A DNA stretch of 64,000 bases from a virus (lineage: Duplodnaviria; Heunggongvirae; Uroviricota; Caudoviricetes): the IMG/VR virus record IMGVR_UViG_3300011442_000002, positions 11,825-75,824 of that record. One strand, given 5' to 3'. The notes beneath the pieces are model-generated. The model did not search any database. It had not been told where the DNA came from and worked only from the letters and a program-made list of their open reading frames with translations. Shown here one piece after another: positions 1,442-26,909 of the stretch (position 1 is the stretch's first letter; the number at the start of each line of letters is the position of its first letter). Made by a program: the position numbers and the translations under genes.

Positions 1442-1452
1442 ATCCTCACTTT

Positions 1453-3380: not shown

Positions 3381-4792
3381 GCGAAGTTCATTCCTGACGT
3401 GAAATAGCCTGTGGCTGGCAACTGAGTCATATCCGCTGCATTTACCATTTCACTCAAGCTCATAATCGAACCAAGCTTGAAAATGTGCATCAATCCGTAT
3501 CTTAAAGCATCTAAAGCGTGGTCGTCATACTTCTGCGCATCCTCACGAGGGTTACGAGGTTTACTGCCCGAACTCGCGGATACCGCACGGTAGTTGTTGA
3601 ATTCACGAATTAGGTCGCCGCATGACGGGTCCACGAACAGCCAGGGCTCATCGATCGGCGTCCCAAATTCGTCCGCCTCACCAACCGTCTGCGTCCGCAA
3701 AAATCCTTTTACCAAATCTATCCCTTCTCGCCAGTTTGACTTTGAAAGCGGGTCAGAAAGGCAAGGAGAGAATGTCGCAGATACAGTAGCAGTAGCCTCA
3801 GGGTCGGCCGCATCACCAAAGCATAAATCAATTTTGTAACCATCAGGCTGTGGTCGCATCTTCATTTCTTCTAAGAACACCGAAAGCCGAGTATGTGTCT
3901 TGTAATGAATACGCCAAACATGAACTCGGTCCATCGGGTCAATCTGAAACTCTACTGCGGCCATCGGGTTAACAAAACCCCAGTCGAAAGCTATGTAGTT
4001 CTTCCAGGCTGGGTTATACTTACAAGCCTTAACATGAGTAACTTCATCCCATTCCGAGTAAATCTTACCCATGAACGAGGTAAAGTCTGCGGCAATTTCT
4101 TGCAGGAACCACTCATAAGGCATAGTACGCTGCAATAGCAAAATTTCTGGGTCTTGCTCGCCACCAGGGTAAATAACTTTATTTTCCCACGATGGAAACC
4201 GCCACGATTCATAATCTTCAAACAGCGGGTTACGACCCAACTGCCAAAGGTCGTGAATCCAGTTTTGACCTTCAGGTGTAGTACTAAATGTCGCACTACC
4301 ACGTCGGTCGGCTAATGCGGGTCTAATGTACCGGTCCCAAGTTTCCTTAGTGTGCTTAGCAGCTTCGGCCATAATTACGTAATCAAGCGCATCGCCAACC
4401 AGCGTCTCCGGTCGGTCCGCGCTTCGCACCTCTAACCGCGTATTCCAAGGGAACTCGATGTACATATCGCCAGCACGCTTATTAAACGCTTTTCTGACAG
4501 TTTTTTCCTTGCCAAGACCCAATTTTACAATCATGTCTTGCCAAATAACCCGGAATTCCTTCTCACCAAGGTCATAAGTTGGACCAACAATCCAAATGTG
4601 CTTATTCGGTACCATTAATAGAGGCTCAGCTTCCCGAGCCCCCATAAATGTCTTACCAAATCGGCGGCCACACACCGGAATCTTGAATCTAGCCTTACTC
4701 CGGTGAAAAAGCCATTGCCTATCGTGTGGCTCATAGCCGATATGCGCAAAGTATCTTTCCTTCGATACCGCACGCACGGCTTCAATAGTCAT
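3377..4792 (-). CDS. terL: terminase large subunit
   Basis: 471 aa. Has an N-terminal P-loop-like motif (KIPVCGRRFGKT) with acidic motifs downstream, and a C-terminal nuclease-like region. Confidence 0.7.
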   Translation of the reverse strand: MTIEAVRAVSKERYFAHIGYEPHDRQWLFHRSKARFKIPVCGRRFGKTFMGAREAEPLLMVPNKHIWIVGPTYDLGEKEFRVIWQDMIVKLGLGKEKTVRKAFNKRAGDMYIEFPWNTRLEVRSADRPETLVGDALDYVIMAEAAKHTKETWDRYIRPALADRRGSATFSTTPEGQNWIHDLWQLGRNPLFEDYESWRFPSWENKVIYPGGEQDPEILLLQRTMPYEWFLQEIAADFTSFMGKIYSEWDEVTHVKACKYNPAWKNYIAFDWGFVNPMAAVEFQIDPMDRVHVWRIHYKTHTRLSVFLEEMKMRPQPDGYKIDLCFGDAADPEATATVSATFSPCLSDPLSKSNWREGIDLVKGFLRTQTVGEADEFGTPIDEPWLFVDPSCGDLIREFNNYRAVSASSGSKPRNPREDAQKYDDHALDALRYGLMHIFKLGSIMSLSEMVNAADMTQLPATGYFTSGMNFA

Positions 4793-4801
4793 AGCTACTC
4801 A

Positions 4802-4942
4802 TTAATTGGTTAAGAAGGTAATTGCGATAAACATAAAGCCAAGTAACATCAAGTTAATTCTTGGCACAACAACGCCAAAGGCACCTAATGCGAAGCTAAC
4901 CGCAGCTAAGAACCAGAGAACCCAATCTAAGGTAATAGTCAT
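4802..4942 (-). CDS. small membrane protein (46 aa)
   Basis: Unlisted short ORF, MTITLDWVLWFLAAVSFALGAFGVVVPRINLMLLGFMFIAITFLTN. Two predicted TM helices. It fills the gap before terminase. Confidence 0.3.
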   Translation of the reverse strand: MTITLDWVLWFLAAVSFALGAFGVVVPRINLMLLGFMFIAITFLTN

Positions 4943-4973
4943 ATCGGTTCCCTTCTATTTCCCAGTTGGCGAA

Positions 4974-5339
4974 TTACAACCCCACAGGTGGCAGCAGCCC
5001 TAAAATTCGCGAGTTTCGCCATATGTCGCACTCATATTCAGGCTCACCGGGTCGCCAAGTACGCCAATTTATTACATCACAAGCTGGACAGTTAACCATG
5101 TATTGTTCTACGAACGAGCTAGGGTCGCGGACTTTGCGTGTTTTATGTTGTTTAATAATCTTCAACCAAAGTCCGGTCGGTACTTGAAACATACCTTCAC
5201 GTTCCAGTTGGTCGGCGAGCATTTCATCCATGGTAATTTTCCTGGTCTCTTTCCACTCTCTCAGTTTCATGCTGGTGTATGCGCTAAAGTACCATCGGCA
5301 AATACCCAAGTACTTGCAGCTAAGGCACCAGTGGCCCAA
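4974..5339 (-). CDS. hypothetical protein (zinc-ribbon-like CPACD...ECD)
   Basis: 121 aa ORF in the late operon. Confidence 0.4.
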   Translation of the reverse strand: MGHWCLSCKYLGICRWYFSAYTSMKLREWKETRKITMDEMLADQLEREGMFQVPTGLWLKIIKQHKTRKVRDPSSFVEQYMVNCPACDVINWRTWRPGEPEYECDIWRNSRILGLLPPVGL

Positions 5340-5860
5340 ACTGGCTTACTAGTACTAGAATTCCAGACTTGCTTACCGGCTACCTTATCTGTAGTGTTAA
5401 TTGCGTTAGCAATAGCAGTTAAATTAGCTGTAGTTGCAGTAACTACGGCATCACCGGCTATTCTAGCCGCCGTTTCGGCAGTCATTTGGCCGGTGGTCGC
5501 ATAGGTACTAACCGCAGTAACAGTAGCACTAGGAAAAATATCCGCGAACTCTAACGTCGACAAGTCATCGGTTTCGATTACGCAATAACCATCTTCAGAC
5601 CAGACACCAGTTCGTACAAATACTGAGTAAGACCAACCTGTGGGCGTTACGCCAGCTTCATCGCTTACCGGTAAAGCTATAGTAGCTTCACCACTAGCAT
5701 CTAAAGTTGCCGTGTAAGTTCCTGGAGCCAATACCATGGCATCAGTTGAGTCATATAGTGCGTATTGGTTAACAAATCTCACAACGCCACTCGCGGCGGT
5801 CCCCGTCGGCGCGTCCACAATCATAATGTGAACGTCGCGAGTGGCAACCGGTAGTGCCAT
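5267..5860 (-). CDS. hypothetical Ala/Thr/Gly-rich protein (possible structural)
   Basis: 197 aa ORF. The low-complexity A/T/G-rich composition resembles virion or decoration proteins. Confidence 0.4.
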   Translation of the reverse strand: MALPVATRDVHIMIVDAPTGTAASGVVRFVNQYALYDSTDAMVLAPGTYTATLDASGEATIALPVSDEAGVTPTGWSYSVFVRTGVWSEDGYCVIETDDLSTLEFADIFPSATVTAVSTYATTGQMTAETAARIAGDAVVTATTANLTAIANAINTTDKVAGKQVWNSSTSKPVWATGALAASTWVFADGTLAHTPA

Positions 5861-6177
5861 TACGTCATCACAGTAGTCTGGTGCACGGTAAACTGAGCCA
5901 CGGAGGCCGTAACCGTAATCTTACAATATGGCGCCAAAGCAGTAATCGTCGATGGCGTGTTATTCGTCAGGGATGGCGTGGTAGTAAACGCCGTATTAGT
6001 ACCATCCATAGACCAAGTTAACGTCATGGCATAGGTACCAGTAGTATGAGTCTTGGTAACGGTAAACGTCTTCGCCGGCAACCGCAAGAAACCCGAGTCT
6101 TCTGATGCCGCGCTCAGCAACGTATGGTTCTCGTAGAGTACCGTCGCTCTAGCGAGTTCCTTATCATATACGGCCAC
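5860..6177 (-). CDS. hypothetical Thr-rich protein
   Basis: 105 aa ORF, coupled (ATGA overlap) to the next gene. Confidence 0.35.
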   Translation of the reverse strand: MAVYDKELARATVLYENHTLLSAASEDSGFLRLPAKTFTVTKTHTTGTYAMTLTWSMDGTNTAFTTTPSLTNNTPSTITALAPYCKITVTASVAQFTVHQTTVMT

Positions 6178-6185
6178 TACTTACC

Positions 6186-6737
6186 TCAAATCTTCTGGTA
6201 AGTGCCAGCAGTAATACCCGGCAGAACACCCGTCGTCGCTGCATGTCCAGCATAAGGAGTCCGAAATGCTGCATTAAAGTCCGCAGTCGGCGCAGCCCCG
6301 GATGGCGTATCCGCTCCGGTATCAGTATACAGGACGGTCGGCGCAGTAATCGTATTCATCAACAGGAACGAACCACCGGTGCGTCCATAAATCTTATAAG
6401 ATGTCGCGCCAGCCACCGTCGCCACTGTCAACGCCACACTTGACGTCGCGCCACCAGCAACATACGAGTTAGATGCTGCACTTAACGCACTTTCCACGCC
6501 ATCTTTTACATACGTGTTCTTGTACGTATAAGTAGCAGCAGCTAGAGTACCACCAGAAGCCGATCCAACAGCAACGGGAGCAGCAGGCGCGTCACCTTGT
6601 CCACCTGTTAGAATAACGGCCATGGACTCGCCATTTGTCCGGCGGTAAATGACATTATCACCTCTAAAACCACGCTTTACGGCCATTTTCCCTCCATCGA
6701 CGTATTTAAATATGCCCATTAAGTATTTAGAACCCAC
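6186..6737 (-). CDS. hypothetical Ala/Gly/Thr-rich protein (possible structural)
   Basis: 183 aa ORF. Confidence 0.4.
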   Translation of the reverse strand: MGSKYLMGIFKYVDGGKMAVKRGFRGDNVIYRRTNGESMAVILTGGQGDAPAAPVAVGSASGGTLAAATYTYKNTYVKDGVESALSAASNSYVAGGATSSVALTVATVAGATSYKIYGRTGGSFLLMNTITAPTVLYTDTGADTPSGAAPTADFNAAFRTPYAGHAATTGVLPGITAGTYQKI

Positions 6738-6770
6738 AGGCAGGGAGGGTACCCGCCATCATAAGTTGAC

Positions 6771-7106
6771 TTATGACTTTAGGTAACCCTCAGCCTCATC
6801 GACCACTTTCTCATAAATGTCATCCCAAGCGTGCTTGCCACCAACATCTAGGCCGCGCTCGGCAGGACCCATTGTGCGTTCAACAATATACTTTGCGGCG
6901 TTAAACCGAATCATTTCTGTTGTTGAGTAGGTCGCAAGATGACAAATGGCCATGGTTGAAATGGGCAGAGCTTCTTCAAATAGCCGTTTTGCAGTAATCT
7001 GTGGCGTATCTGTTGACTCTAATGCCCGCTCCATAGTCAGGTTTCTCAGCGCCGTGGTCGGGTCCCACTCTGTTGGATCGATCGGCGGACGATCAGGATT
7101 GGTCAT
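6771..7106 (-). CDS. hypothetical protein (first gene of leftward late operon; possible small terminase)
   Basis: 111 aa, first ORF after the divergent control region. The size is compatible with TerS but there is no direct motif evidence. Confidence 0.3.
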   Translation of the reverse strand: MTNPDRPPIDPTEWDPTTALRNLTMERALESTDTPQITAKRLFEEALPISTMAICHLATYSTTEMIRFNAAKYIVERTMGPAERGLDVGGKHAWDDIYEKVVDEAEGYLKS

Positions 7107-7317
7107 TGGTTGTCACCCCCTCAAGAGACCTTAAAGCCAGAATACGTCAGTCAGAGCAGAATGTCCACCGTGACGGAAAATGAACACTTCAATTTTACTT
7201 CGCAAAATATTTGGACATTGTAATGTCAATTTTCTGACACTTAAAAACTTTCTTGATCTACGTGAAACGCTCCAAAATGTCCATTTTATACCTTTTATCT
7301 TAATATAGTTACTTTTG

Positions 7318-7760
7318 TTATATTATGCCCGATTTTTCCTCCCCCCAATATGGGGATATGTCCGAAATGTCCGATTTGCTCCACCCTGTCCGGATTTGTA
7401 CGGATGTGTGCCGATTTGTCCACATATAGGGGGGCCAAACGGGCATGTCCGATTTATCCACATTTAGCCGGCCTGTGACGTAAATCACAGTCGGAAATAT
7501 GGTGATATGTCCGATTTGGTAGGGGGGATATACCCCCTTTACCCCATATGTCCGATTTGTCAGAAAGGTCGTATATGGGGGGATATGCCCATTGTGCCCT
7601 GTTTTGCCCCGATTTAGCACGCCCGAAATGTCCGATTTATGCGGATTTATGCCCATATGGGGGACATTTTTTACCGGACATGTCCGATTTGTCATACTTT
7701 GTCCTATTTTAGGGGGGCGAAATTATCGGGACAAACCACCACAAAACGGACATTTCCACC
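7318..7760. promoter_or_regulatory. divergent control region: ORF-free array of ~10 ATGTCCGATTT(G) motifs that flips orientation near 7700-7745
   Basis: Top-strand copies of ATGTCCGATTTG (7358-7694) change to AAATCGGACAT (from 7744). A CGGACATGTCCG palindrome lies at about 7674. The region sits between the leftward late genes and the rightward early genes. Confidence 0.6.
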
Positions 7761-7952
7761 CAAACCCGGACATGCTATGCTTATAGTATAACTAAAGGCG
7801 CGGAACGGTAATATCGGACACTTCCGACAATCCGGGGAAACCAAGCCAAATCGGACATTGATAACTAAATAGTGACGAACCGGGCGAACCGGGCAAAACC
7901 CCCAAGTCTCCCCTATCCGGCATGTCCGACAAAATCGGACAAAGGAGACAAA

Positions 7953-8111
7953 ATGGTACAAAGACGGACAAAGTGGTGGGAATACTGCTCAAACTGCTCA
8001 AATCGGGTAGAAGCTCCCAAAACGGACAATCCGACCGAAACCATGCTAGAATGTAGGAATTGCGGCAAAACGGAGAAAGTGGACATAACCTCCCAAAGCC
8101 GCGCAGAGTAG
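7953..8111 (+). CDS. early small protein (CxxC...CxxC zinc ribbon)
   Basis: The start is reset to the ATG preceded by cATGTCCGACAAAATCGGACAAAGGAGACAAAATG. 52 aa, with CSNC...CRNC. Confidence 0.5.
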   Translation: MVQRRTKWWEYCSNCSNRVEAPKTDNPTETMLECRNCGKTEKVDITSQSRAE

Positions 8112-8218
8112 GACAAAGCGGACATGCCGGACAGAAGGGACTTGGGGGACAAAAAGGGAAAATCCGGATCTAAGAGGCTATGTCCGACAAATCAGAAAAA
8201 TCGGACATAGGAGACAAA

Positions 8219-8377
8219 ATGGAAGATTTCACCGGAATTGGGACTGAAACGGACAATTGGTACAAGTCGGACCAACACGACAATCTGCCCGAAGGGGACG
8301 TTTGCGACGAAGGGTGCGATTGGTGCCTAGGGGACGGATCGGAGATAATACTCATCCTGGACGAAACGGACATCTAG
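8219..8377 (+). CDS. early small acidic protein
   Basis: ATG preceded by ATGTCCGAC..CGGACATAGGAGACAAAATG. 52 aa. Confidence 0.5.
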   Translation: MEDFTGIGTETDNWYKSDQHDNLPEGDVCDEGCDWCLGDGSEIILILDETDI

Positions 8378-8486
8378 TCTAAAAGGCACAAAACGGACAT
8401 AGCCTCCTAAATCCGGATTTTCCTGGACTTACCACCTCTTACCGTACATGTCCGATAATTCGGGAAAATCGGACATAGGAGACAAA

Positions 8487-8696
8487 ATGGAAAAATTCGG
8501 GCGTATCGTCGCATATTACGACAATTCGGTCGGAGTGCCGCAAATCGGACTTTTCGTCGGATATGAGGCATATGGCACAAATTGGACATTCTACCCGAAT
8601 CAGTGCATAGCTGACGGAATGGACAAAAACGGCATAAGGTACCTAGAGGGCGATTTGGGATTTATCGGAGGAATTCCGGCAATCCTGGCAAACTAG
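8487..8696 (+). CDS. early small protein
   Basis: Same start-associated motif (ATGTCCGATAATTCGGGAAAATCGGACATAGGAGACAAAATG). 69 aa. Confidence 0.5.
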   Translation: MEKFGRIVAYYDNSVGVPQIGLFVGYEAYGTNWTFYPNQCIADGMDKNGIRYLEGDLGFIGGIPAILAN

Positions 8697-8786
8697 GACA
8701 AAACGGACATGTACGGCAAAAGGTGGTAAGTCAGGCTATCCGGGTATAAGCGCATATGTCCGACAAAACGGACATAAGGAGACAAA

Positions 8787-9059
8787 ATGCACATTTACGA
8801 CCTTAAGTGCGAAGAGACCAAAACGGACATCTCGGGCATAACAGTCAAAAGTGGGCAAAAGGTGGTAATCGTACGATTGCTGACAATTTCGTACACAGTG
8901 GACGTTAAGGACCTTCTGGACGATTGCGACGTAACGGAGATTTCGCTCAAACAGCTCATAACGGGCGAAGAGCGCGAAAACGACATTACGGTCAAAATGG
9001 AATATTGGGACGAAGCGGAAATTGGGGACGATCTAGTCATTTCGGCCGAAGTACTCTAA
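8787..9059 (+). CDS. early small acidic protein
   Basis: Preceded by ATGTCCGACAAAACGGACATAAGGAGACAAAATG. 90 aa. Confidence 0.55.
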   Translation: MHIYDLKCEETKTDISGITVKSGQKVVIVRLLTISYTVDVKDLLDDCDVTEISLKQLITGEERENDITVKMEYWDEAEIGDDLVISAEVL

Positions 9060-9129
9060 ACCACCCAAATCGGACATATGCGCCTATATCCGGATAGCTC
9101 CCGACGGGAGATATGTCCGTTTTGCCCGG

Positions 9130-9206
9130 TTTGTCGTTTTGTAATTACAAAGGTGTAATTTGTGCCTTGTGCCCGAATTGCACCATTGTAATTACAAAAC
9201 GACAAA
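9130..9206. repeat. 77-bp near-perfect palindrome (21-bp arms TTTGTCGTTTTGTAATTACAA, plus inner GGTGTAAT/ATTGCACC)
   Basis: The arms at 9130-9150 and 9186-9206 are exact reverse complements. The palindrome is flanked by CGGACAT motifs on both sides. Confidence 0.8.
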
Positions 9207-9436
9207 TCGGACATTACGGACATATACGACAAGTCGGAAAAAACGGATAAATCGGGCATTTCCGCCCATATGGTGGCGTATGCGTATGCAGTCCTAAATA
9301 ATTGGACATTTCCGTGCCGATCGGTGACTTTCGGACATTTTGGACAAAAACCACTATATGGGGGGAAAAAATGATTATCCGGATCTAACAGGCTATGTCT
9401 GGCCAAAAGGGACAAATCGGACAAGAGAGGCCAAAA

Positions 9437-9679
9437 ATGGACATTTGGGCTGAACTCTGGCCAATTCCCCACGTAAACGGCAAAACGCACAAATCGGTCG
9501 TAAGGTCGGTTTCCGCTCAAATTAGTGTCTTTGCGACAATCGAGGACATTTACCACAGAGTGGTCAAATCGGGCATTGCGGACGATGACGACGTTTTGGC
9601 GACTACTAGGGCAATTCGGACAGTTCGGGACAATATCCGTAAAACGGTCGAAGGCGGACGAAAGGAACTAACGGCATGA
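9437..9679 (+). CDS. early small protein
   Basis: ATG after a variant motif (ATGTCTGGCCAAAAGGGACAAATCGGACAAGAGAGGCCAAAAATG). 80 aa. Confidence 0.45.
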   Translation: MDIWAELWPIPHVNGKTHKSVVRSVSAQISVFATIEDIYHRVVKSGIADDDDVLATTRAIRTVRDNIRKTVEGGRKELTA

Positions 9680-9859
9680 AACAGACATTCAGGAAAATCC
9701 TGACAAACGGCGCAATCCTGGTGATTAGCTTCTTTATCGGGATATACCTGGGCACAAGGCACTAATGAGCTAAACCAGACATAGCCTGCTAAATCCGGAT
9801 AATCAGGATATACCAGCTCTAAACGCATATGTCCGGTAAAACGGACAAAGGAGACAAAA

Positions 9860-10156
9860 GTGTACGTACAGGATGAAAAGCAACGTAACGTCGGAAATCT
9901 GGACATTCCGGACGGATGGGCCGGAACGTACGATACCTCGCGAATGTGGACAATTATCCACGTAATGCCACAAATCGGGGCATTGGTGACATACCAGGAC
10001 CAAGCGTACCAAATCATCCGAACCGAGACACATCAGGAGGAAGACGTAAATCCGCGCATTACGACCTTTTGCGTCATTGTTCGCATTGACGACGAAGGGG
10101 ACCAATTGGACATAGAGTCCATAATGGTCAAAGCGGACGAACTGACTCTTATCTAG
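9860..10156 (+). CDS. early small protein
   Basis: GTG start after ATGTCCGGTAAAACGGACAAAGGAGACAAAAGTG. 98 aa. Confidence 0.45.
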   Translation: MYVQDEKQRNVGNLDIPDGWAGTYDTSRMWTIIHVMPQIGALVTYQDQAYQIIRTETHQEEDVNPRITTFCVIVRIDDEGDQLDIESIMVKADELTLI

Positions 10157-10254
10157 CAAAAAGGGTAAAACGGACATATGCGTCTAAAGCTGGTATATCA
10201 GGCTATACCCGTTCTAACTCTGCATGTCCGGACAAAACTGGACAAGGAGTACAA

Positions 10255-10518
10255 ATGTACGTAAACGTGGGTGCAAGGGACGTAAGCAACAATAAGGACA
10301 TTCCCACCAAATCGGACCTTAAGGGACGAATGGTGAATTACCCCCAAACCGTCGAATTGTACGTAACTGACGCATTTGGGCCAAATGCAGGCAAAGTGGT
10401 CATTGGCGACAATCTGGAGATTGGTGTCAAATACACCGTAACCGGACCAAACCCGTACACAAGCCGCAAATGGTATGCAACGGTCGAAAAGACTGTTAAG
10501 GGTATCAAAGTAAGCTAA
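10255..10518 (+). CDS. early small protein
   Basis: Preceded by ATGTCCGGACAAAACTGGACAAGGAGTACAAATG. 87 aa. Confidence 0.5.
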   Translation: MYVNVGARDVSNNKDIPTKSDLKGRMVNYPQTVELYVTDAFGPNAGKVVIGDNLEIGVKYTVTGPNPYTSRKWYATVEKTVKGIKVS

Positions 10519-10597
10519 CCCACACAAATCGGACATGCAGGGCTAAAACGGGTATATCCGGATTTAAGGTGACATGTCTCCACAAAAGGAGACAAAA

Positions 10598-10846
10598 ATG
10601 GGCATAAGTGTAGGAACCATCTTCAAGTGGTTGGATTCGGACAATCCAGACGATTCGGCTGAATCCTGCCTAGATGGGCAATGTGTGGGCAAAGTAACCG
10701 AAATCATAGAAAACCCGGACAATACGGACAAACCGTCTGTATCGGTCAAATGGTGGGAAATGTGTAAACTTCACCACGAAATCGATCCAAACGGGACAGG
10801 TCCGTACGATCTGAGTTATATCTGGCAAATCGGACAACTTTACTAA
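10598..10846 (+). CDS. early small protein
   Basis: ATG after ATGTCTCCACAAAAGGAGACAAAAATG. 82 aa. Confidence 0.45.
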   Translation: MGISVGTIFKWLDSDNPDDSAESCLDGQCVGKVTEIIENPDNTDKPSVSVKWWEMCKLHHEIDPNGTGPYDLSYIWQIGQLY

Positions 10847-11130
10847 AACACATCAAATGGGGACATGTCACCCTATATCCGGATATATTCGACTGTCAGG
10901 AACCCGACAGTACGAAATGTCCGGTTAGCACCATAAGTCGGTTTTGTGTGTGCTATACTGGAAGAGTGGCCCAAATCGGGCAAGAAAGCATCAAATCAGA
11001 CATTTTGGGGCATATGCATATGCAGTCCTCAAAAATTGGACAAACTGCAACCAGTCGGATATTGATAACTAAATACGGACATGTCTGGATATATGGGGGC
11101 GTGGCCTGATTTCTACACTTTGGAGACGAT

Positions 11131-11418
11131 ATGTGGGAATATGGCTACACTGATCCTTTTTCAGCCGAAAACGACACCATTGAAGTCTTTTGGGGCGAAG
11201 CATCCTCATTTGTGACGGCTTTGGGCGAATTGTGCGAGAATGTCGAGAAAATGCTCAATGATGCGGAACCGTACCAAATTTCCCATTATGAGCAGGTTCT
11301 CGCGGAAATTCGGACAATTCTCTCAGATCCAGCATATGCGGAAGATCCGGACCAATGGGAAGATATGGAGTTTACGGACGATATCGGAGAAATCGTATAT
11401 TACCTGATCGAACTGTAA
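11131..11418 (+). CDS. early small acidic protein
   Basis: 95 aa, with GGAGAC SD. Lies downstream of a TGCTATACT promoter-like module. Confidence 0.5.
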   Translation: MWEYGYTDPFSAENDTIEVFWGEASSFVTALGELCENVEKMLNDAEPYQISHYEQVLAEIRTILSDPAYAEDPDQWEDMEFTDDIGEIVYYLIEL

Positions 11419-11500
11419 AAATCGGACAGATCAGGCCATACCCCTTTATATCCAGATATGTCTAGCTTTAGACTGCCATGTCCTTAGAAATGAGGACAAA

Positions 11501-11770
11501 ATGGACTTAACGCCTAGTTCGTTCGAAATCAGGGAATACATGGAAAAACAGCCTGGTTTCGGAGAAATCGACTCAAACCTCCAACATGCTATCATTTCGG
11601 ACATTCGGCACAGAATGGCTGCAAGTGTAGAATATTGGCGCACATGGGGCGAATTCGTGCTAAACTACGTAAATTGGGTCAATGAGTACATTACCGCATT
11701 TTCCGTCACACCTGCGGGCATGTGGGAACAATGGGGCGTAATGCTCAGAGACCTCTATTTAGGTAGATAA
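11501..11770 (+). CDS. early small protein
   Basis: 89 aa. Preceded by ATGTCC...GGACAAAATG. Confidence 0.5.
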   Translation: MDLTPSSFEIREYMEKQPGFGEIDSNLQHAIISDIRHRMAASVEYWRTWGEFVLNYVNWVNEYITAFSVTPAGMWEQWGVMLRDLYLGR

Positions 11771-12056
11771 CCACAACAAACGGACATGGCAGGCTAAAAC
11801 TGGACATATCACCACAATAGCCACTGTCAGATACCTGACATGTAGAAATGTCCAATTGGCACTATAAATGCCGATCGGGTATGCTATACTTAGTGTAGGC
11901 GGGCGGAACTGCCAGCAAACCCCACAGGGCAGGACAAACCCGCAAAAATCGGACATTCTCACCTAAATATGGCTTTATTGCACCTTCAGGTAGAAAAAGT
12001 GCAGGATGGGACAAACCATCCCATCCTGTGCTTTCCCTACCTGAAAGGGGCCTAAG

Positions 12057-12650
12057 ATGGCAAACGAGAAGACTCCTATCACAAAGGTACAAAAAGGACG
12101 AAGGTGGGCAACCGCTACTTTGGTGCTTACCGGACTTTTCTCAATTTGGTTTAATGTCCGTTCTGGTAAGATTGCGGCAGAACCGATCCTTTTCTCCGCT
12201 ATGCCAGTTGTGGTACTGTTTCTCACGATTCACCTGATTAGTTACCTTAATCCCCGTAAGGGCATGCATAAGGTACTTGTCTACTTTGGATTGGGTATGG
12301 TGTCAATTGTCGCATTTGGGATGTCTGGCTTCCATTTGTACACGGAAGCGATCAAAAACGGACAAATCTGGATTATTGCGATAACCTACCCATTCATCGT
12401 AGATGTGCCAAGTGTGATTTCTGCGGTAATTTTGGTCGAAAAGGTGCCAGTCGCGCGAGCGGTGACACAACCGGCAAACCCGGCGAAAAAGACAGTTCCG
12501 GCAAAAAAGGCTAGTCCTACTAAGGCTACCGCAACCCCAACAAAACGGACATCTAGCCCGAAAGCGACAATTCCGGTAAAACCCGAAGTAACGTTCAGAA
12601 CGCCTGATATCCTGACAGATCCGTTGGAAAGGGAGTTTCTTAGCGCTTAG
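12057..12650 (+). CDS. integral membrane protein with C-terminal Lys/Pro/Thr-rich tail
   Basis: 197 aa with about 4 predicted TM helices, then PAKKTVPAKKASPTKATATPTKR. A roughly 170-nt structured leader lies upstream. Confidence 0.55.
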   Translation: MANEKTPITKVQKGRRWATATLVLTGLFSIWFNVRSGKIAAEPILFSAMPVVVLFLTIHLISYLNPRKGMHKVLVYFGLGMVSIVAFGMSGFHLYTEAIKNGQIWIIAITYPFIVDVPSVISAVILVEKVPVARAVTQPANPAKKTVPAKKASPTKATATPTKRTSSPKATIPVKPEVTFRTPDILTDPLEREFLSA

Positions 12651-13422
12651 GTGCATTTAGTGCGATTCTGGCATTTTGGACATTCCACTCAGAGTGTCAG
12701 AATCGTGCTATGTCCACCTAAACCAACTAAATCCAACTTAAAAGGGACAGATCATGCCAAAGAGTACGAAGTTGACGATTAGGCAAATTCGGGCATTTAA
12801 TAGCTTTTTGGACAAACTCCTCAAAGTTACCGAATCCGCTGACTTAGCACATCTGTACGAAAGTGCCAAGATCAGCGGTGCCCAAATCGGACAAACGGTA
12901 CTTAAGGGATAGGACGGACAATGCGGATCAAACCGTATGCAATTATCTCAATAATCGTAATAGCCGTATATGCATCCATAGCTGTCCTTTCCAGGATCTA
13001 GCTCGCATTACGGTCAGATCGCCCATTTCCGCACATTAGGCGCGATCCGTCGGATATGGTCCTAAAAAGCCCATATCCGCACGGTCCGGGGCCTAAACCG
13101 GACATTTACACCTCAAATACCACAGAAAGGTACAAAAATGTTCAACACTGACACTTCGGTTGATGAGCACCTAGAAGCGGCGTATGAGGCGCAATCGGAC
13201 AGTTCGTACGAACCGTACGGATACGGGTCAGACTACGCGGACCCGGACGATTACGACGATTACGACGAAGAGGACGATTCAGACGAAGAGGACGAAGACG
13301 ACATCTAGTACCAACCCCACCATTTAGGCAGATTTGGTGTGAGATAGGTCTAGTCCACCTATCTCATGCCATGTCCACCTAAATCGGCACAAAACTACCA
13401 AAACCGGAGAGGATCGGACAAA

Positions 13423-13611
13423 GTGACACGAAAACACTATATCCTTCTAGCTCGGACAATTAGGGCTCAGATGGAGAAATACGACTATCCGGACGATACG
13501 CGCGAACTGGACGCAATCCGGGCATTAGTCAACGAACTGTGCATAACGCTCAAAGCGGACAATCAAGACTTTGACCGCGAAAAGTTCCAAAAAGCTACAA
13601 TTCACTTCTAA
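13423..13611 (+). CDS. early small protein
   Basis: GTG start after GGAGAGGATCGGACAAAGTG, in frame with listed ORF 13366. Confidence 0.4.
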   Translation: MTRKHYILLARTIRAQMEKYDYPDDTRELDAIRALVNELCITLKADNQDFDREKFQKATIHF

Positions 13612-13839
13612 CAACCACATATTCCCCAAAAGGGACGATCATGGTCGTATTGGTACATATGTACCAATACGTGCCATGGGCGCCTCTAATTTCCAAAATG
13701 CCTATACCTAGGCAGAGACACCCAAAAGGCACCAAACCCGCTCAGCGTGGCCCACAACGGGCGAACGGCACCAACCACGCTGAGCGGACCAATGCCCACC
13801 AACCAAGATCAACAGACCACCTAGCAGAAAACGGACAAA

Positions 13840-14076
13840 ATGGACATTTCCCCACACAATCCGCCAATGCCAGTTACCACCAAAAAAGCCACAAAGAGGA
13901 AGAAGTACCCGAAAGGCGGGTCAATGCGGGCACCTAACGCAATCGCCGCGATTTACTCGGATAACACATATGCCGTGATCGCGGACGAAGCTACCGAAAG
14001 GCGGCTAAGTGCGTACGGACCGCCTACAGACACCCGAAAGGCTGGATACAACTTCATTTGGGGCGAAGTGAACTAA
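13840..14076 (+). CDS. early small basic protein
   Basis: 78 aa. Preceded by AAACGGACAAAATG. Confidence 0.45.
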   Translation: MDISPHNPPMPVTTKKATKRKKYPKGGSMRAPNAIAAIYSDNTYAVIADEATERRLSAYGPPTDTRKAGYNFIWGEVN

Positions 14077-14782
14077 TCGGACATGTCCGGACATGAGGAC
14101 CCAATCTCCACCAAATCCCTCATGTCCGGACAATCCGACCTATATTTAACCATACCACCTGTATTCCTCAAGAATTGGGGCAATCCGCCTCCATTCGGTC
14201 ATTCGCTTACCTATCGGACCCAAATATGTATACCGGGGATACCTCTTTCTATCACTCGCTGAGTGGGGGTCGTGGTCACGTGGAATCCCACCAAATCGGA
14301 CATACCGCCAATAGCAGCGTGTTTGCCACGAGTCACCACACAGTCAGCATCTTCACTACTCTACTACTCCTATTTTTTCCTTGTTTCATTTAAGCAATGA
14401 CTACATACTTAATACAAACGTCTGTTCGAATCAAAACGGACAAAACAATATATCTACGGAAGTTAATGGTATACCTTATCTCTCGCACACACCGGCAATT
14501 TGGACATTTTCATGCCACTGTCTTGTTCTAGAACAGACGTTCCAATGCCTTATCTAGGTAGAGCGCTTCAGGACTCGTAAAAATTTGGATATTACGACTC
14601 AACATCACAAATGTCCGAATTTTTTGCTATAGTGTGGACCTTAATCGCTAAACGTAGATAAGGGATTGGCCCGGTAGAGATCAACTTTGTCTCAATCGTG
14701 ACCAGTGCTAACATAGGTAGCTAGCCGCGCCAATGACATAAAACGGTCAACACGTAGCAACTACCCACATACGGAGCGTAAC

Positions 14783-15715
14783 ATGCCAGTATGGCCTAAT
14801 AACCGCGCAATAATAATTTCACACCCAATTTACGGCAAAGGCCTCGAACCTGAACGTTTAGGACACATGTCGACGGAACTCTGCCAATGGCTCAAGTATA
14901 AGCTTGATGAACAAACCGCAATAGATGCTGACGAAACGGACGCATTAGGATTTAAGCAATTTTTCACACAACCAACCATTAACGCATTTACCACCCGTAG
15001 CCTGATTTCTGCGATCAGAGGTTACTCACCTAGCCTATGCTACGAAAACGGACGTTTAACCAACCGTGGCATAGAAACGGCAAAAATAGCAAGAGCCATA
15101 ATTATGGACAAAGAGAACCTAGGAGCGCACGATATCCTAGACTTGACAAAGATTACCAGAACGGAAGATTTGTTCATAACCGGCGAAGTCACAATAAGAC
15201 AGGCCGCACTACTCAAAATGATTTATAACGCCGTACTCGACGCAGAAGCGAACGATAGGCGCGAATTGGACAAAGAGTACCAAGCACTCTTACAAGGCAA
15301 TAACCAGCAACGGAACGAAATTACCCAAACACAGCAAATGGCGCTTTTAGCCAAAAATAACCAAGATAGTACGAATGGCACAGACTACACAAACAGCAGA
15401 GAAAGCGCAAAAGATACAACAGAGATCGAAGGTGATTTAACGGACATTTTTCGCGTAAGTGAACGAACCAACGAAACTCAGCCATTACAGGCCATAACCT
15501 TTAATTTGGGTGCTGGCCAGCGTCGGCAGGGTTATGTTCCAACAGCGATTTTTGTCCAAAAAACTCGTAATGACCTAAGAAACCTAGTAAAGTACGGTTT
15601 GGTCGATTTACGGGCACATGTCCAAGGTGTCCGTGGTCGACCGAAGCACGTGGTACGCGCCAGTCCAACCGGAGTGATCATGGTGGCCGACCTGGTTCGC
15701 CAGGACGTGATCTAA
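14783..15715 (+). CDS. hypothetical protein (Gln-rich central region; basic C-terminus RGRPKHVVR)
   Basis: 310 aa ORF downstream of a roughly 700-bp noncoding region containing palindromes. Confidence 0.5.
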   Translation: MPVWPNNRAIIISHPIYGKGLEPERLGHMSTELCQWLKYKLDEQTAIDADETDALGFKQFFTQPTINAFTTRSLISAIRGYSPSLCYENGRLTNRGIETAKIARAIIMDKENLGAHDILDLTKITRTEDLFITGEVTIRQAALLKMIYNAVLDAEANDRRELDKEYQALLQGNNQQRNEITQTQQMALLAKNNQDSTNGTDYTNSRESAKDTTEIEGDLTDIFRVSERTNETQPLQAITFNLGAGQRRQGYVPTAIFVQKTRNDLRNLVKYGLVDLRAHVQGVRGRPKHVVRASPTGVIMVADLVRQDVI

Positions 15716-15942
15716 GATCAACAGGGTTCGACGCGCTGTCAAAAAATTCTTAGAAAAAATCTTGGAGAAACGGACATAAACTGTTGCGGCTGGCCGTTAT
15801 ACCTGTTAGAATGGGACATGCAAGCGAGCACAGAGCGAGCAAAGCCCACAGGTAGCGGCCAGCCCGCGACACAAGACGGCCGAGCACATCTCTAAGGGAT
15901 CTTGATGAGAGAAAAATAAGTCAAGATTTTTTAGAAATGTAC

Positions 15943-15971
15943 TTGACACTTGTCAGTGCATGAGGTATACT
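15943..15971 (+). promoter_or_regulatory. sigma70-type promoter (TTGACA-17-TATACT)
   Basis: Consensus -35 TTGACA at 15943-15948, a 17-bp spacer, then -10 TATACT at 15966-15971. It lies about 55 nt upstream of the 16026 start. Confidence 0.6.
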
Positions 15972-16025
15972 TTAAAGTGGAAACAAAGTACTACCCAAAA
16001 AACAATGATCTCGAAAGGATCAAAA

Positions 16026-16772
16026 ATGACAAATTCACTTGATCTGTTTGACGGACTTGACACCAGCGATTCGCAGGGTGCCCCTGTGGGATCTGTTGGT
16101 AACGGTGCGCCAGATTCTGCCACTACTGAAATTGACAACTCAACAAGTGGTTCTACTGAGTCTGCGGACGCAGAGTCTTCTCCTGTGGAGACTGTCGCGC
16201 AGATTCCCGACGGAGTGATGTCCGTCACGGAATTCGCCGCTTTCATGACCCAAACCCTCATGAAAGCAAAGTTTGAGGCAGGCGAAGACCTTGATATGTC
16301 TGAGTACGTGGTTCCACAGGCCGTGTACCAGACTGTTAAGGCTCAGAAAGACCGAATCCCGCACGTTCTCGTAAAGGGTCCGGACGACGCTGAGGCGCGC
16401 GTTTACATTCTTAAGGCTGAAGCTACCGCATGGTGGATTGAGCGTAAGGATCGACTGTCTACTCGCGGACAGGGCGCAGCGCGTGCCAGTTCTCGTACTC
16501 CCGAGGACAATCTGTCTCTTCTAGGTGCAGCAGTAGAAAAGTCGCTCTACGCGCAGGCTCGCCAGGCAATGTGGGTCGAGCGTACGGAGCAGGCTGCCAA
16601 GCTTGTAGAGAAGTACAAGCAGTTCCTTTCCGATGCAAAGATCGAAGAGGCGACTGTTGAGCTTGCAATTCAGGAGGCGACCACTCGGTACCACGCTGAG
16701 CAGGCCGCTAAGGAAGCGGAAAAGGCGAAGAACACTAAAAAGGGCAAGTCCGCCCAGACTGACGAGGATTAG
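16026..16772 (+). CDS. hypothetical acidic Ser/Thr-rich protein with helical Lys/Glu-rich C-terminus
   Basis: The start is reset to the ATG after the AAAGGA SD, rather than the listed 15960. Confidence 0.5.
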   Translation: MTNSLDLFDGLDTSDSQGAPVGSVGNGAPDSATTEIDNSTSGSTESADAESSPVETVAQIPDGVMSVTEFAAFMTQTLMKAKFEAGEDLDMSEYVVPQAVYQTVKAQKDRIPHVLVKGPDDAEARVYILKAEATAWWIERKDRLSTRGQGAARASSRTPEDNLSLLGAAVEKSLYAQARQAMWVERTEQAAKLVEKYKQFLSDAKIEEATVELAIQEATTRYHAEQAAKEAEKAKNTKKGKSAQTDED

Positions 16773-16820
16773 TCGAAATGCAATAAGTCAGTGCCTAACT
16801 GACTAAAATCAACTAAGGTG

Positions 16821-16853
16821 GGTAGGGTACTCAGTTTGACTGAGTACCCTACC
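16821..16853 (+). terminator. 14-bp perfect hairpin (GGTAGGGTACTCAG/CTGAGTACCCTACC)
   Basis: Lies directly after the 16772 stop. There is no U-tract. Confidence 0.45.
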
Positions 16854-16975
16854 GCTTGCGTTAAGGACGTGACAAAGTTCACACTATACCTAAAATCTAC
16901 GATTTTAGGGGACTTAACGCCCAAATGTACAAAAAGGCATTAAAAGCACATTAAACAGTAATAACCTAACAAAAA

Positions 16976-17017
16976 GGACAAAGGACAAAGGACAAAGGAC
17001 AAAGGACAAAGGACAAA
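16976..17017 (+). repeat. (GGACAAA)x6 tandem repeat abutting a start codon
   Basis: Six perfect 7-bp units end 2 nt before the ATG at 17020. Each unit contains an AAGGA SD-like core. Confidence 0.8.
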
Positions 17018-17019
17018 AA

Positions 17020-17232
17020 ATGGCTATTTTCGCATTTATTGGGATTATTCTGCTGGGACTCGGTTTCAGTGCGCTTGCTTCGCTCGCGCTTGGGTGGGTA
17101 TTCATGATTTTGGTGGGTATCATTCACGCTGAGTGGTTGCCCGGCGTGCCGACGATCGGCTACTGGTGGGCAGTCCTGTGGGCAGTCCTGATCCGTGTCT
17201 GCACGACGGCGGATTACACCGCAGAGAAGTAA
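17020..17232 (+). CDS. small membrane protein (2 TM; holin-like topology)
   Basis: 70 aa with two hydrophobic helices. Confidence 0.5.
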   Translation: MAIFAFIGIILLGLGFSALASLALGWVFMILVGIIHAEWLPGVPTIGYWWAVLWAVLIRVCTTADYTAEK

Positions 17233-17258
17233 AAACAGGCATTAACCCCTAAAAAGGG

Positions 17259-17311
17259 CACTCAGTACTATAAGACTCAAAAGGTCCGATTAGTACTGAG
17301 TGTCCTTTTTT
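17259..17311 (+). terminator. Rho-independent terminator
   Basis: 11-bp stem CACTCAGTACT/AGTACTGAGTG followed by TCCTTTTTT. Confidence 0.65.
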
Positions 17312-17361
17312 GGCGTTATATACTTGAAGTCCTCAATAATTGGACTATTTAGGAGCGATCC

Positions 17362-17637
17362 GTGACAACTTACAAATTCGGGCTAGTTTACACCAATGGG
17401 ACGAGTATTAGCCAAGGTGGGCATAGCTGGCAAGAAATTATAAACTTATTGGTCGGGATATACCAAACGGCCAATAATGAGCAGGTTGCTAAGTTAGTTA
17501 TCAGCAATGAGCAATTTGTCTATGACCCGGCTACTGAGGTAGGCTTACAGCGACAGTTAGCGGCTCGCAAAGCTGGCGTTCAGTATGTCGGAGTTGAAAA
17601 ACTTGACATGAAAGCAAAGGAAGAAAAGAAAACATGA
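17362..17637 (+). CDS. hypothetical protein
   Basis: 91 aa ORF with a GTG start. Confidence 0.4.
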   Translation: MTTYKFGLVYTNGTSISQGGHSWQEIINLLVGIYQTANNEQVAKLVISNEQFVYDPATEVGLQRQLAARKAGVQYVGVEKLDMKAKEEKKT

Positions 17638-17879
17638 TGCAAGAAATTCCAAGTCTGGCACAAATACTTTACATGGTGGCCCTACTAGGATCTCTAGGAA
17701 CTCTGATTGCTGTTGGGATTCTAGTAGGACACTTTCGCAAGCACTTAGATTGACTGAAAATAATTAGTGGTTTTGCTCGGTACTCGACGTGCTAATGCAA
17801 CTCATTGCTAACGATAGGTCGAGTACCGTGTTATTCAACTAACTATATTAACCCAAGCAATACCACAGTTAGGAGAAGA

Positions 17880-18170
17880 TGGTTGTATGTTCCCGATGAT
17901 TGGCGCACGGCTTGTTATGACCACACAATTACCGCACACAAAGTAAGCTTTACTAAGAAACTCTTGTGCTGCACCTGTGGGATTACTGGCTGGAATCCAC
18001 ATCAACTATGGGCAGGCCATGTTAATGCAGAGAACGAGGCTAGAGCATTCCTAATGACGATAGAAACCCGGAAAGCTGACCATATGGCTAAACGTGTTGC
18101 TGAGGAAAAAGCGAGAGTAAAAGCTAGAATGGCAGGAACTACTACAGGTAGAAGCCGTTATTATGATTAA
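17880..18170 (+). CDS. hypothetical Cys-rich protein
   Basis: In-frame TTG start after AGGAGAAGA, preferred to the listed 17805 ATG, which has no RBS. Confidence 0.35.
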   Translation, partial: WLYVPDDWRTACYDHTITAHKVSFTKKLLCCTCGITGWNPHQLWAGHVNAENEARAFLMTIETRKADHMAKRVAEEKARVKARMAGTTTGRSRYYD

Positions 18171-18257
18171 ATGCTTGGTTGCGTTGCATTGTCCAGGAAA
18201 TAGAAACATCCTGGGCAGTGTTGCACAACTAAACAAATGGACAAACAGAAAGGCAAT

Positions 18258-18635
18258 AAAATGGAACTTTCTGAGTACAAACTTCCTGTTGGCAATGAGT
18301 CGACACACGAATACTACAAATACTCATATTACTATGAGGCACTGGAAATTTTGAATCCAGATGCAGGACCATGCATTACGTGTGATAAGCCGATGGTTCG
18401 GCTTAGAGCAAAGCAGTTTATCAATCACAATGAAGTGAAGTACACGCAGATTTCGGATATTATGTACGCGCACGCGGACGGCAGCGAGCCGCATGCAGGA
18501 TTTTATAATCATCCTAAGGCAAAGTGTCCAGATTGCTCGCAGTATGGCACGCTCACGACACAGCAGCTACCTTATGGCGATTTGACTACTTGTAGTCATT
18601 GCCATCAGCAGAGTTATTTCCCGATTGGCGATTGA
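18258..18635 (+). CDS. zinc-finger protein (multiple CxxC)
   Basis: CITCD...CPDC...CSHCH. Start chosen after the AAAGG SD. Confidence 0.45.
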   Translation, partial: KMELSEYKLPVGNESTHEYYKYSYYYEALEILNPDAGPCITCDKPMVRLRAKQFINHNEVKYTQISDIMYAHADGSEPHAGFYNHPKAKCPDCSQYGTLTTQQLPYGDLTTCSHCHQQSYFPIGD

Positions 18636-18729
18636 TTTAGTACAAAGCGGTCGTTACAGGTTCGATTCCTGTGGCGACCACGCACGTTAGTTGTAAATGG
18701 ACAATAGAACAACGAAGGGAATTGATAAA

Positions 18730-18975: not shown

Positions 18976-19052
18976 GTGAATAGTTGGTTGCGTTGCATTG
19001 TGCTCATGGCAACATGAGCGCAGTGTTGCACAACCAAACAGAAAGGTAAGAA

Positions 19053-26883: not shown

Positions 26884-26909
26884 ATTGTCAGACTTAGGGC
26901 TGACTTTAA

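Follow-up and report, generated by a model that had tools for sequence, protein, structure and literature searches.

In this study, we analysed a repeated sequence element around the small genes of a phage recovered from a metagenome (IMG/VR record IMGVR_UViG_3300011442_000002), which appears to be tailed and probably lytic. The window, by which we mean the whole stretch of DNA analysed, comprises 64,000 nt (positions 11,825 to 75,824 of the record) of a 75.8-kb contig, about 12 kb of which lie outside it. A leftward structural operon (48–7106) encodes a Mu-like protease (48–1169), the portal (1453–3018) and the large terminase (3377–4792) and continues onward to 7106. Across a divergent non-coding region lies a rightward arm of small, presumably early ORFan genes (7953–14076), and to the right of this arm follow tRNA genes and a replication module (SNF2 helicase, PD-(D/E)XK nuclease, AAA_24, DUF3987 primase-helicase and a uracil-DNA glycosylase (UDG)-PolA fusion). 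Gene calls from Logan contig SRR6448364, which has the same terminase, match the early gene list minus the 52-aa gene at 7953. A cassette of about 95–105 nt recurs between the early genes, and we show here that it is a real, conserved control system of the start-associated-sequence kind. The original prediction had described a palindrome before most early start codons as its unit. The unit that is repeated is, however, not a palindrome but an asymmetric word of 11–12 bp, cAAA(A/T)CGGACA(T/A), here called M: its core occurs mostly as single copies that have an orientation but no pairing partner, and 97 of these, in 11 genomes, lie inside open reading frames (ORFs).

An oriented word in the early arm

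Genes are named below by the coordinate of their start.

7107–7952, no strand: divergent non-coding control region of about 850 bp between the structural operon and the early genes (ORF lists, Pfam and independent gene calls)
7358–7690, minus strand: cluster of M with eight exact CGGACA cores and further degenerate copies, AAATCGGACAT on the minus strand, read as ATGTCCGATTT on the plus strand (sequence)
7675–7686, no strand: orientation flip CGGACATGTCCG, in which two M cores overlap head to head (sequence)
7953–14076, plus strand: early ORFan arm with sense-strand M in coding sequence (counts in the window and in 11 genomes)

The heptamer CGGACAT occurs 55 times on both strands of the window, compared with 6.0 +/- 2.4 copies (maximum 14) in dinucleotide shuffles. 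The predicted enrichment over shuffled sequence is therefore borne out, as is the figure of more than 40 copies between 7.3 and 14.1 kb, since 43 of the 55 lie within 7300–14110; 12 copies, and not four, are found elsewhere. The core CGGACA is present in 68 copies on the plus strand, concentrated between 7.7 and 16 kb, while most of its minus-strand copies belong to the cluster at 7358–7690 or form the 5' arms of start hairpins. M runs rightward through the early genes and leftward in the cluster, such that on both sides it points away from the flip at 7675–7686 in the direction in which that side is transcribed. The structural operon (48–7106) contains no copy at all, and M is confined to 7.3–16 kb; the early arm of 7 kb carries more than 60 sites, about half of them in ORFs.

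Between the genes, M occupies two preferred positions. A copy follows most stop codons, as had been claimed: this is the case at 8119, 8394, 8704, 9071, 10171, 10530, 11423, 11781 and 14078 in the window, and 69 of the 115 early genes of the 11 genomes have M no more than 25 nt past the stop, most commonly at 7–12 nt. A further 79 CGGACA copies in these genomes stand directly before the Shine–Dalgarno sequence (SD), all on the coding strand, with the consensus AAAtCGGACATAGGAGAC-AAA-ATG and with the distance from M to SD held at 0–3 nt. Within the window ORFs, CGGACA is found 18 times in the sense and once in the antisense orientation, compared with 2.4 copies expected from codon shuffles (maximum 9 in 1000); over the 11 genomes, the ORF interiors hold 97 sense and 11 antisense copies of M, compared with 14.7 expected. 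The spacing of M inside ORFs is about one copy per 230 nt. The sense-strand excess is present in every genome and M occurs in all three reading frames; among orthologues, the positions of M turn over and the density is kept. Selection therefore acts on nucleotides and on density, and neither a peptide nor a fixed site is its target. Of the intergenic M copies that are not at starts, 25% are followed within the next 70 nt by an exact complement of 7 nt or more, as opposed to 3% of those inside ORFs and 0% of shuffled ones. The strand-specific asymmetry of the motif, its enrichment in coding sequence and the opposite cluster at 7358–7690 were not part of the original prediction.

Relatives were collected by pattern scan and by terminase-based scans of IMG/VR and JGI metagenomes. 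At least 13 loci share the M system (L040–L043, L045–L048, L062, L064, L100, L103 and L158); their terminases are 73–87% identical at the protein level and their DNA 65–78%, and all of them have the opposite-strand cluster followed by 7–8 kb of plus-strand copies. In distant relatives, whose large terminases are 52–64% identical, CGGACA is at background (mostly 0–5 copies per strand) and no comparable start-associated word was found. The 115 early proteins of the 11 genomes, which are not independent samples and whose genes were called in the relatives with a simple SD-based caller, fall into 17 families and 48 singletons, the order of which is shuffled while the cassettes around them are conserved. 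Candidates for analogous systems in the distant relatives were rejected: in L061, the motif GGGnATCG forms tandem arrays of about 40 nt instead, the repeats of L066 are coding, and the short repeats of L124 and L143 (ACACTTA arrays and GGTACGGTA, respectively) are limited to the control region. The L061 repeats (133-kb contig, reverse complement 13500–19400), with about 40 one-strand copies in non-coding islands among tRNA genes, represent a different repeat system.

No near-identical DNA match to isolated phages was found by megablast, and the best protein matches in isolated phages mostly reach 25–35% identity over most of the query. A Pfam search of the larger window ORFs (about 50 submitted) revealed no integrase, repressor, helix-turn-helix (HTH) protein, sigma factor, RNA polymerase or known appropriator. 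The early proteins have no informative match in Pfam or PHROG, where two weak matches only, to families of unknown function, were obtained; the most widespread of them is the product of gene 9437, with about 15 small homologues.

Start hairpins and the intergenic cassette

7922–7955, plus strand: start block of gene 7953, ATGTCCG-acaaaat-CGGACAA-AGGAGACAAAATG (sequence)
8180–8221, plus strand: class I hairpin with a 15-nt loop, then SD and ATG of gene 8219 (pattern scan)
8389–8425, plus strand: example of a gene-end half-cassette, CAAAACGGACAT-N6-CTAAATCCGGAT, 12 nt past the stop at 8377 (sequence)
8448–8489, plus strand: class I hairpin with a 15-nt loop, then SD and ATG of gene 8487 (pattern scan)
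8756–8789, plus strand: class I hairpin with a 6-nt loop, then SD and ATG of gene 8787 (pattern scan)
9066–9124, plus strand: gene-end hairpin after gene 8787, CAAATCGGACATAT/ATATGTCCGTTTTG, 13 of 14 positions paired, inner stem CTCCC/GGGAG (sequence)
9395–9439, plus strand: variant block of gene 9437, ATGTCTGG...CGGACAA, pairing by G-U (pattern scan)
9829–9862, plus strand: class I hairpin, then SD and GTG start of gene 9860 (sequence)
10224–10257, plus strand: class I variant ATGTCCGG...CTGGACAA, then SD and ATG of gene 10255 (sequence)
10574–10600, plus strand: class II hairpin ATGTCTCC-acaaaa-GGAGACA of gene 10598, in which the 5' arm pairs with the SD and M is absent (sequence)
11478–11503, plus strand: class II variant ATGTCCT-tagaaatg-AGGACA of gene 11501, the arm changed along with the SD variant GAGGACA (sequence)
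11801–11854, plus strand: hairpin TGGACAT...ATGTCCA, both arms changed in step (sequence)
14086–14130, plus strand: 13-bp M/anti-M hairpin TCCGGACATGAGG...CCTCATGTCCGGA directly past the stop at 14076 of gene 13840–14076, the last M-rich small gene (sequence), with a presumed operon-end role

Two classes of start hairpin can be distinguished. Class I stems are formed by ATGTCCG and CGGACAT; they end 10–13 nt short of the start codon and leave the SD unpaired. In class II (13 modules), it is the SD GGAGACA that pairs with ATGTCTC(C/T/G), the stem ends only 1–3 nt short of the start codon, and M is usually found in the loop. The hairpin had been described as abutting the ribosome-binding site (RBS), which does not apply uniformly. 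Seven of the ten starts for which an inverted repeat had been described have an arm with an M-type partner (7953, 8219, 8487, 8787, 9437, 9860 and 10255), whereas the arms at 10598 and 11501 (ATGTCTCC and ATGTCCTT) pair with the SD, and 13840 has M directly before its ATG and no inverted repeat. These ten genes are not consecutive, as the starts at 11131, 12057, 12754, 13138 and 13423 have other leaders, and the spacer, which had been given as 6–7 nt, takes values of 6, 6, 7, 9, 15 and 15 in the window. The pattern ATGTCY-N5-22-GGACAW has 13 matches where 0.55 are expected, with all but one locus directly upstream of early starts, and a good stem is present in 61 of 83 start modules. In the first gene of the arm, an outer anti-SD stem is added, in which GTCTCC (7908–7913) pairs with GGAGAC; the leaders of the first genes in L041, L043 and L046 have this stem as well, as does that in L064 with a variant sequence.

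The view of the inverted repeat as a base-paired element holds up well, because the arm varies with its partner (ATGTCCG/CGGACAT, ATGTCTCC/GGAGACA, ATGTCCT/AGGACA). Among modules related by descent, ATGTCTC arms occur with an SD of the type G[AG]GAC in 11/13 cases compared with 31/76 of the remainder (Fisher p=0.0037), and ATGTC(C/T)G arms occur with an M partner in 45/55 compared with 5/19 (p=2e-5). Rarer matched pairs are ATGTCCT/AGGACA (11478), ATGTCCTC/GGGGACA (L062), TGGACAT/ATGTCCA (11801, 11848) and an M variant, AAATCAG/CTGATTT (L041). Class switches are seen within single gene families and therefore do not reflect one inherited event. This linked switch of arm and partner supports a real hairpin. 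The loops in the relatives measure 6–8 nt (30 cases), 15–16 nt (10 cases) or 24–27 nt (3 cases), and such variability (6–27 nt) argues against a rigid dimer operator bridging both arms.

The start block is the 3' end of the larger intergenic cassette. In order, it consists of the stop codon, 7–12 nt, a copy M(A) of the form cAAAWCGGACAT, N6, CTAAAnCCGGATA, about 12 nt, TATCCnGnTCTAA, N5, a pyrimidine, ATGTC(CG or TCC), the loop, M(C), 0–2 nt and AGGAGACAAAATG. ATGTC is invariant in all 78 of 78 modules. Equivalents of the gene-end half at 8389–8425 are present at 8119, 8704, 9071, 9776 (CAGACAT), 10171, 10530, 10861 (GGGACAT), 11423 and 11781. In the long intergenic regions (9060–9436, 10847–11130 and 11771–12056), the first half of the cassette is kept and a stronger hairpin is added. 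On the minus strand, 12002–12028 upstream of gene 12057 forms a strong intrinsic-terminator-like hairpin with a T-run, which suggests that antisense transcription from the right is stopped there. In the distal arm (12651–12715 and 13330–13385), a third leader type consists of a variable 9–12-bp hairpin, then ATGTCCACCTAAA, then the SD; it is common in relatives (L041 19128–20312, L043 20526, L047 19576), and in several of them the 5' half of M serves as the hairpin's 5' arm, opposite a partner that matches it.

Several candidate functions for parts of the cassette were rejected. A sigma-70 promoter in the short cassettes is not supported, since a scan gave no more sites than in shuffles and none at a conserved position, and since the logo upstream of ATGTC is TCTAA without A-11 or T-7 and without a -35 element. 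A mid-cassette helix CCGGATA...TATCCGG is paired in 51.7% of cells, no better than in shuffles. For an extension of the long-range pairing between the stop-adjacent M and the ATGTC arm, RNAalifold picks a 6-bp core with three compensatory and three broken changes, which is not significant. A separate case is CsrA/Rsm-type control with a sponge RNA, which calls for ANGGA cores in hairpin loops, one of them over the SD, and for CsrA in the host. M agrees with this in part: it contains GGA, ANGGA fits the AAAACGGACA half of the copies only, and M lies in the loop in class II modules only and in the stem in class I. The sole genome match in a host lookup is a 6-kb contig binned with a SAR202 metagenome-assembled genome, which is too weak to use. 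With the covariance models of Rfam 15, only tRNAs reached the gathering score, and nothing credible was found in 6.5–20.5 kb at E<=1.

The control region and other elements of the window

7316–7324, plus strand: extended -10-like TGTTATATT, rightward, upstream of the opposite M cluster (pattern scan), a candidate promoter
7773–7781, plus strand: extended -10-like TGCTATGCT upstream of the first early gene (sequence), a candidate promoter

Further extended -10-like elements, TGCTATACT, are found at 10951–10959 and 11882–11890, that is, in two of the three long intergenic regions (10847–11130 and 11771–12056). Judged by their sequence, 10951, 11882, 7316 and 7773 are the likeliest host-type promoters; that the sigma-70-type consensus does occur in this genome is seen at 15943 (canonical TTGACA-17-TATACT). 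Plus-strand elements like TGTTATATT are also present upstream of or within the M cluster in L040, L042, L048, L062 (17 copies) and L064. Because such elements point into the cluster (one in the window, 17 in tandem in L062), the leader cluster is probably part of the rightward early transcript. Transcribed in this direction, the leader would hold the exact complement of M many times over. Two DnaA boxes at 7416 and 7454 are exact matches, yet they are not conserved in relatives and were discarded.

The 17 elements of L062, TGCTATAGT, lie in about 1.1 kb of AT-rich degenerate tandem repeats (reverse complement, 13165–14200) between the structural operon and the anti-M cluster, and two 18-bp operator-like palindromes GTGTCAACATGTTGACAC adjoin the array. 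An imperfect palindrome related to these, TTGGACATTGTAATGTCAA, is found at 7212–7230 of the window. A further word, (C)ATATGGGG(GG), and its complement, CCCCATAT, are repeated at 7340–7700, 9270–9370 and 11085–11100, which takes in both the control region and long intergenic stretches of the early arm.

Other repeats were noted to the right of the early arm. Six perfect tandem copies of AAGGAC (16966–17023) stand directly upstream of ATG 17021 of a gene for a 70-aa hydrophobic protein; the run is made up of SD-like and M-core-like (GGACAA) units and could vary by slippage, and in L124 a start codon is preceded by a comparable run, (CACTTA)n. A second, unrelated intergenic repeat at 18172–18232 and 18983–19046, upstream of the gene starts at 18261 and 19054, consists of TGGTTGCGTTGCATTGT, a variable hairpin and CAGTGTTGCACAAC(T/C)AAAC, and a third hairpin-type element lies at 20185–20300. 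Two long GC-rich non-coding stretches (15716–15960 and 19545–19850) share GCCCACAGGTAGC and may encode small RNAs, for which there is no Rfam match; a 10-bp hairpin at 19784–19818 has M in its loop. A Ro60/TROVE protein is encoded at 32108–33706, and a Y-RNA-like partner is therefore worth seeking. ARAGORN predicts 22 tRNA genes, which are spread among small ORFs at 26018–42264; with Rfam, 21 attain the gathering score, and this set, which adds 27591–27662, is not identical to that of ARAGORN. Neither they nor the UDG–polymerase fusion (54964–57258, an N-terminal UDG-superfamily domain fused to a family A DNA polymerase) nor a Fic/DOC protein (41587–42096) have any bearing on the motif.

A control system of the start-associated-sequence kind

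The closest concept to the cassette is the start-associated sequences (SAS) and extended SAS (ESAS) of Cluster K mycobacteriophages, together with similar repeats in Microbacterium phages (clusters EF and EG), and the earlier comparison with actinophages was apt. The Cluster K SAS is a conserved SD-containing block in a single orientation, which lies 3–7 bp before the start codons of many non-structural genes (PMC3203893). Upstream of about half of the SAS/ESAS sites lies an inverted repeat, imperfect and with a spacer that varies in length, and the elements are clade-specific and of unknown function (PMC3203893, PMC7302621). The consensus in Cluster K is GGGATAGGAGCCC, with 17-bp subcluster-specific inverted repeats and 11–19 copies; as the inverted repeats are without RNA covariation, DNA binding was favoured by the authors of that study (PMC3203893). 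An asymmetric SD block before start codons in one orientation and the restriction to the non-structural region are also seen here. However, the sequence is unlike GGGATAGGAGCCC, the arms are 7–9 nt long and not 17, the 3' arm is the oriented word M itself, and the type of arm goes with that of its partner (p=0.0037 and p=2e-5). Moreover, M is also placed after stop codons and enriched in ORFs, which has not been reported for SAS, and there are at least 60 copies per genome rather than 11–19.

Translational control, an RNase processing site and an operator for a DNA- or RNA-binding regulator had all been suggested for the element, and the sequence alone cannot choose among them. T4 RegB and RegA and the RNase III sites of T7 provide examples in which early mRNAs are marked near the SD or by an intergenic hairpin and a single factor acts on all of them; the RegB target is GGAG itself, and RNase III needs a duplex of about 20 bp. 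Here, by comparison, the stems are 6–9 bp long, on which account an RNase III-type duplex was rejected, the middle of the cassette is unstructured, and a homologue of either enzyme was not detected.

We tentatively favour, with rather less than even confidence, an RNA-level cassette that coordinates the early messages, in which a putative sequence-specific factor would recognise M as its tag and the 5' side of the RBS would be shaped by the hairpin. According to this model, a small number of host-type promoters located in the long intergenic regions would drive the early arm. On the mRNA, the AUGUC arm would pair with the downstream GACA element, either the M beside the SD or the SD GGAGACA, and each cistron would thereby obtain a 6–9-bp hairpin at the 5' edge of its RBS, which could be a stabiliser, a processing boundary or a translational modulator. 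M itself would mark early transcripts in a strand-specific manner, both where genes start and end and in ORF interiors. A putative trans-acting factor, most likely a phage-encoded RNA-binding protein or endoribonuclease following the logic of T4 RegB/RegA, would read M and process, silence or destabilise the entire early class together. The opposite cluster in the leader would supply anti-M (or M, if transcribed leftward) and modulate the factor, and the cassettes may double as portable homology for the shuffling of early genes. We favour an RNA-level function because of the enrichment of M, its strand rule, its sense bias in ORFs, the pairing and the conservation across 13 relatives. We also count in its favour that loops of 6–27 nt are tolerated, that M keeps 0–3 nt from the SD, that about a quarter of the intergenic M copies away from starts have a complement nearby, that the short cassettes are without a sigma-70-type promoter and that the anti-M cluster is preceded by extended -10 elements pointing rightward.

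A number of observations weigh against this interpretation. The region is taken to be early from its position and gene type, and among the early proteins neither an RNA-binding protein nor a nuclease was found with Pfam or PHROG; the protein of gene 9437 is predicted to be a helical bundle (predicted local distance difference test score 78) without a significant match in the PDB, and this fold is uninformative. The middle of the cassette shows no excess of folding stability (z mean -0.04 for 54 modules) though its sequence is conserved, and in this respect it looks more like a site for a protein or RNA polymerase than like an RNA structure. In a fixed-register covariation test of 30 cassettes, pairing is high (88.7%) but does not exceed that of column shuffles, given how little the arms vary. 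The association between arm and partner is not phylogenetically independent. G-U pairs outnumber A-C mismatches in the stems by 12 to 3 with a scoring biased to G-U and by 4 to 2 without this bias, which is a trend in the direction of RNA, but one in small numbers and a weak discriminator between RNA and DNA. The predicted accessibility of the SD is bimodal (fully paired in five window genes, open in five) and does not differ between the early genes and 62 other window genes (p=0.64), which rules out a systematic masking of the SD. Lastly, DNA stoperators, too, are defined by an asymmetric site whose orientation follows transcription.

The stoperators of Cluster A phages, bound by L5 gp71-type repressors, are asymmetric short sites in short intergenic spaces whose orientation follows transcription (PMC9283540). 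A stoperator system also entails a cognate HTH immunity repressor, a temperate life cycle and a block of elongation that depends on orientation once the protein is bound. The main alternative is accordingly that M is an asymmetric site in double-stranded DNA at which a monomeric phage protein blocks RNA polymerase in one orientation; once accumulated, this protein would silence the early arm and insulate the divergent region, and the inverted copies would be incidental or have a separate role in RNA. We consider this possible, if unlikely. M is indeed asymmetric and 11–12 bp long, and to either side of the divergent region its orientation follows transcription (97 to 11 in the sense direction within ORFs); its placement near stops and starts in short intergenic spaces agrees with the published hallmark (PMC9283540), tandem pairs of M 9–10 bp apart, about one helical turn, are common, and the conserved cassette middle without RNA structure and the control-region repeats that distant relatives have of their own (GGTACGGTA in L143, ACACTTA arrays in L124) would fit as well. 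However, more than 60 sites are crowded into one 7-kb arm, at about ten times the density of stoperators, of which a Cluster A genome has some 20–30, about half of the M sites are in ORFs (97 copies well inside in the 11 genomes), and no HTH repressor or integrase was found with Pfam or PHROG among the roughly 50 larger window ORFs, although a small novel protein is possible. Nor would an operator explain why a dedicated complementary arm forms hairpins at gene starts, why this arm switches to pairing with the SD when it is not ATGTCCG, or why M is fixed at 0–3 nt from the SD. We are more doubtful of a tag and anti-tag network of RNA, in which early messages would be tagged by the 11-nt word and the leader, with 8–27 exact complements (or the tag itself, if read leftward), would serve either as an antisense RNA with many sites or to sponge up a protein that binds the tag; the leader would then time the translation or decay of the whole set of host-takeover genes, and the local anti-tag arms at each RBS would set the sensitivity of the individual gene.

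It is improbable, in our view, that GGnWTATCCnGnTCTAA-N5-y is a non-canonical promoter for a phage-modified host RNA polymerase, with transcripts beginning at the A of ATGTC and every early mRNA carrying a protective 5'-terminal hairpin. Such a promoter would account for the invariant ATGTC (78/78) after a pyrimidine with a conserved, unstructured element of about 25 nt at a fixed distance, for a hairpin whose 5' end is constant while its position relative to the start codon varies, and for the absence of the TCTAA part from first-gene leaders, which lie downstream of a host-type promoter. However, the element is without A-11, T-7 and -35, its information content of at most 1 bit per position is far under that of phage RNA polymerase promoters, no RNA polymerase, sigma factor or appropriator was found with Pfam in the larger window ORFs, and M inside ORFs would be left unexplained. 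Somewhat less probable still is an evolutionary by-product akin to the promoter-early stem-loops (PeSL) of T4-type phages, composite intergenic cassettes with a stem-loop that flank ORFans in hyperplastic early regions with gene shuffling (PMC4122927). The cassettes would then be portable homology spread by recombination or gene conversion, with a strong RBS as their sole function, and the M copies in ORFs would be relics of cassettes swallowed by young genes. The cassettes analysed here do flank shuffled ORFans that differ between close relatives, in a hyperplastic early arm with 17 shared families and 48 singletons; L062 has five class II modules, as concerted evolution predicts, and assemblies break at varied places within the early region. 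PeSL differ, however, in that they carry a sigma-70 promoter (TTGACA-N17-TATAAT type), which the short cassettes here do not, their stem-loop is a terminator upstream of the promoter rather than a hairpin beside the RBS, and they have no oriented word in ORFs. The sense excess in ORFs, held in every genome despite the turnover of positions, amounts to continuing selection, the arms remain complementary in both classes, and the orientation flip and leader cluster are conserved, none of which would be expected of a by-product. We regard as very unlikely a polar DNA motif, such as a Chi-like signal, an iteron or a packaging signal, radiating from an origin or terminus at about 7.69 kb. There is a single flip point in a non-coding region beside the terminase operon, where the cumulative GC skew also has its minimum, and the geometry would suit a Chi-type signal if a DNA end lay at the flip and reading began there; M, however, extends over just 7 kb to one side and 0.35 kb to the other, it keeps fixed distances to stops and SDs, the DnaA-box-like sites at 7416 and 7454 are not conserved in relatives, and contig ends do not cluster at the flip.

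Start-associated motifs of actinophages have been catalogued for 15 years without a mechanism, and the clade described here is an unusually rich case. Each genome has more than 60 copies of an oriented 11-mer, there are an opposite-strand leader cluster and two hairpin registers, and at least 13 diverged genomes can be compared. Conserved intergenic modules combined with a rapid shuffling of ORFan early genes are hereby shown outside the T4 family. If a cognate factor is found, it would constitute a compact sequence-specific switch for an entire temporal gene class, which might be a portable tool.

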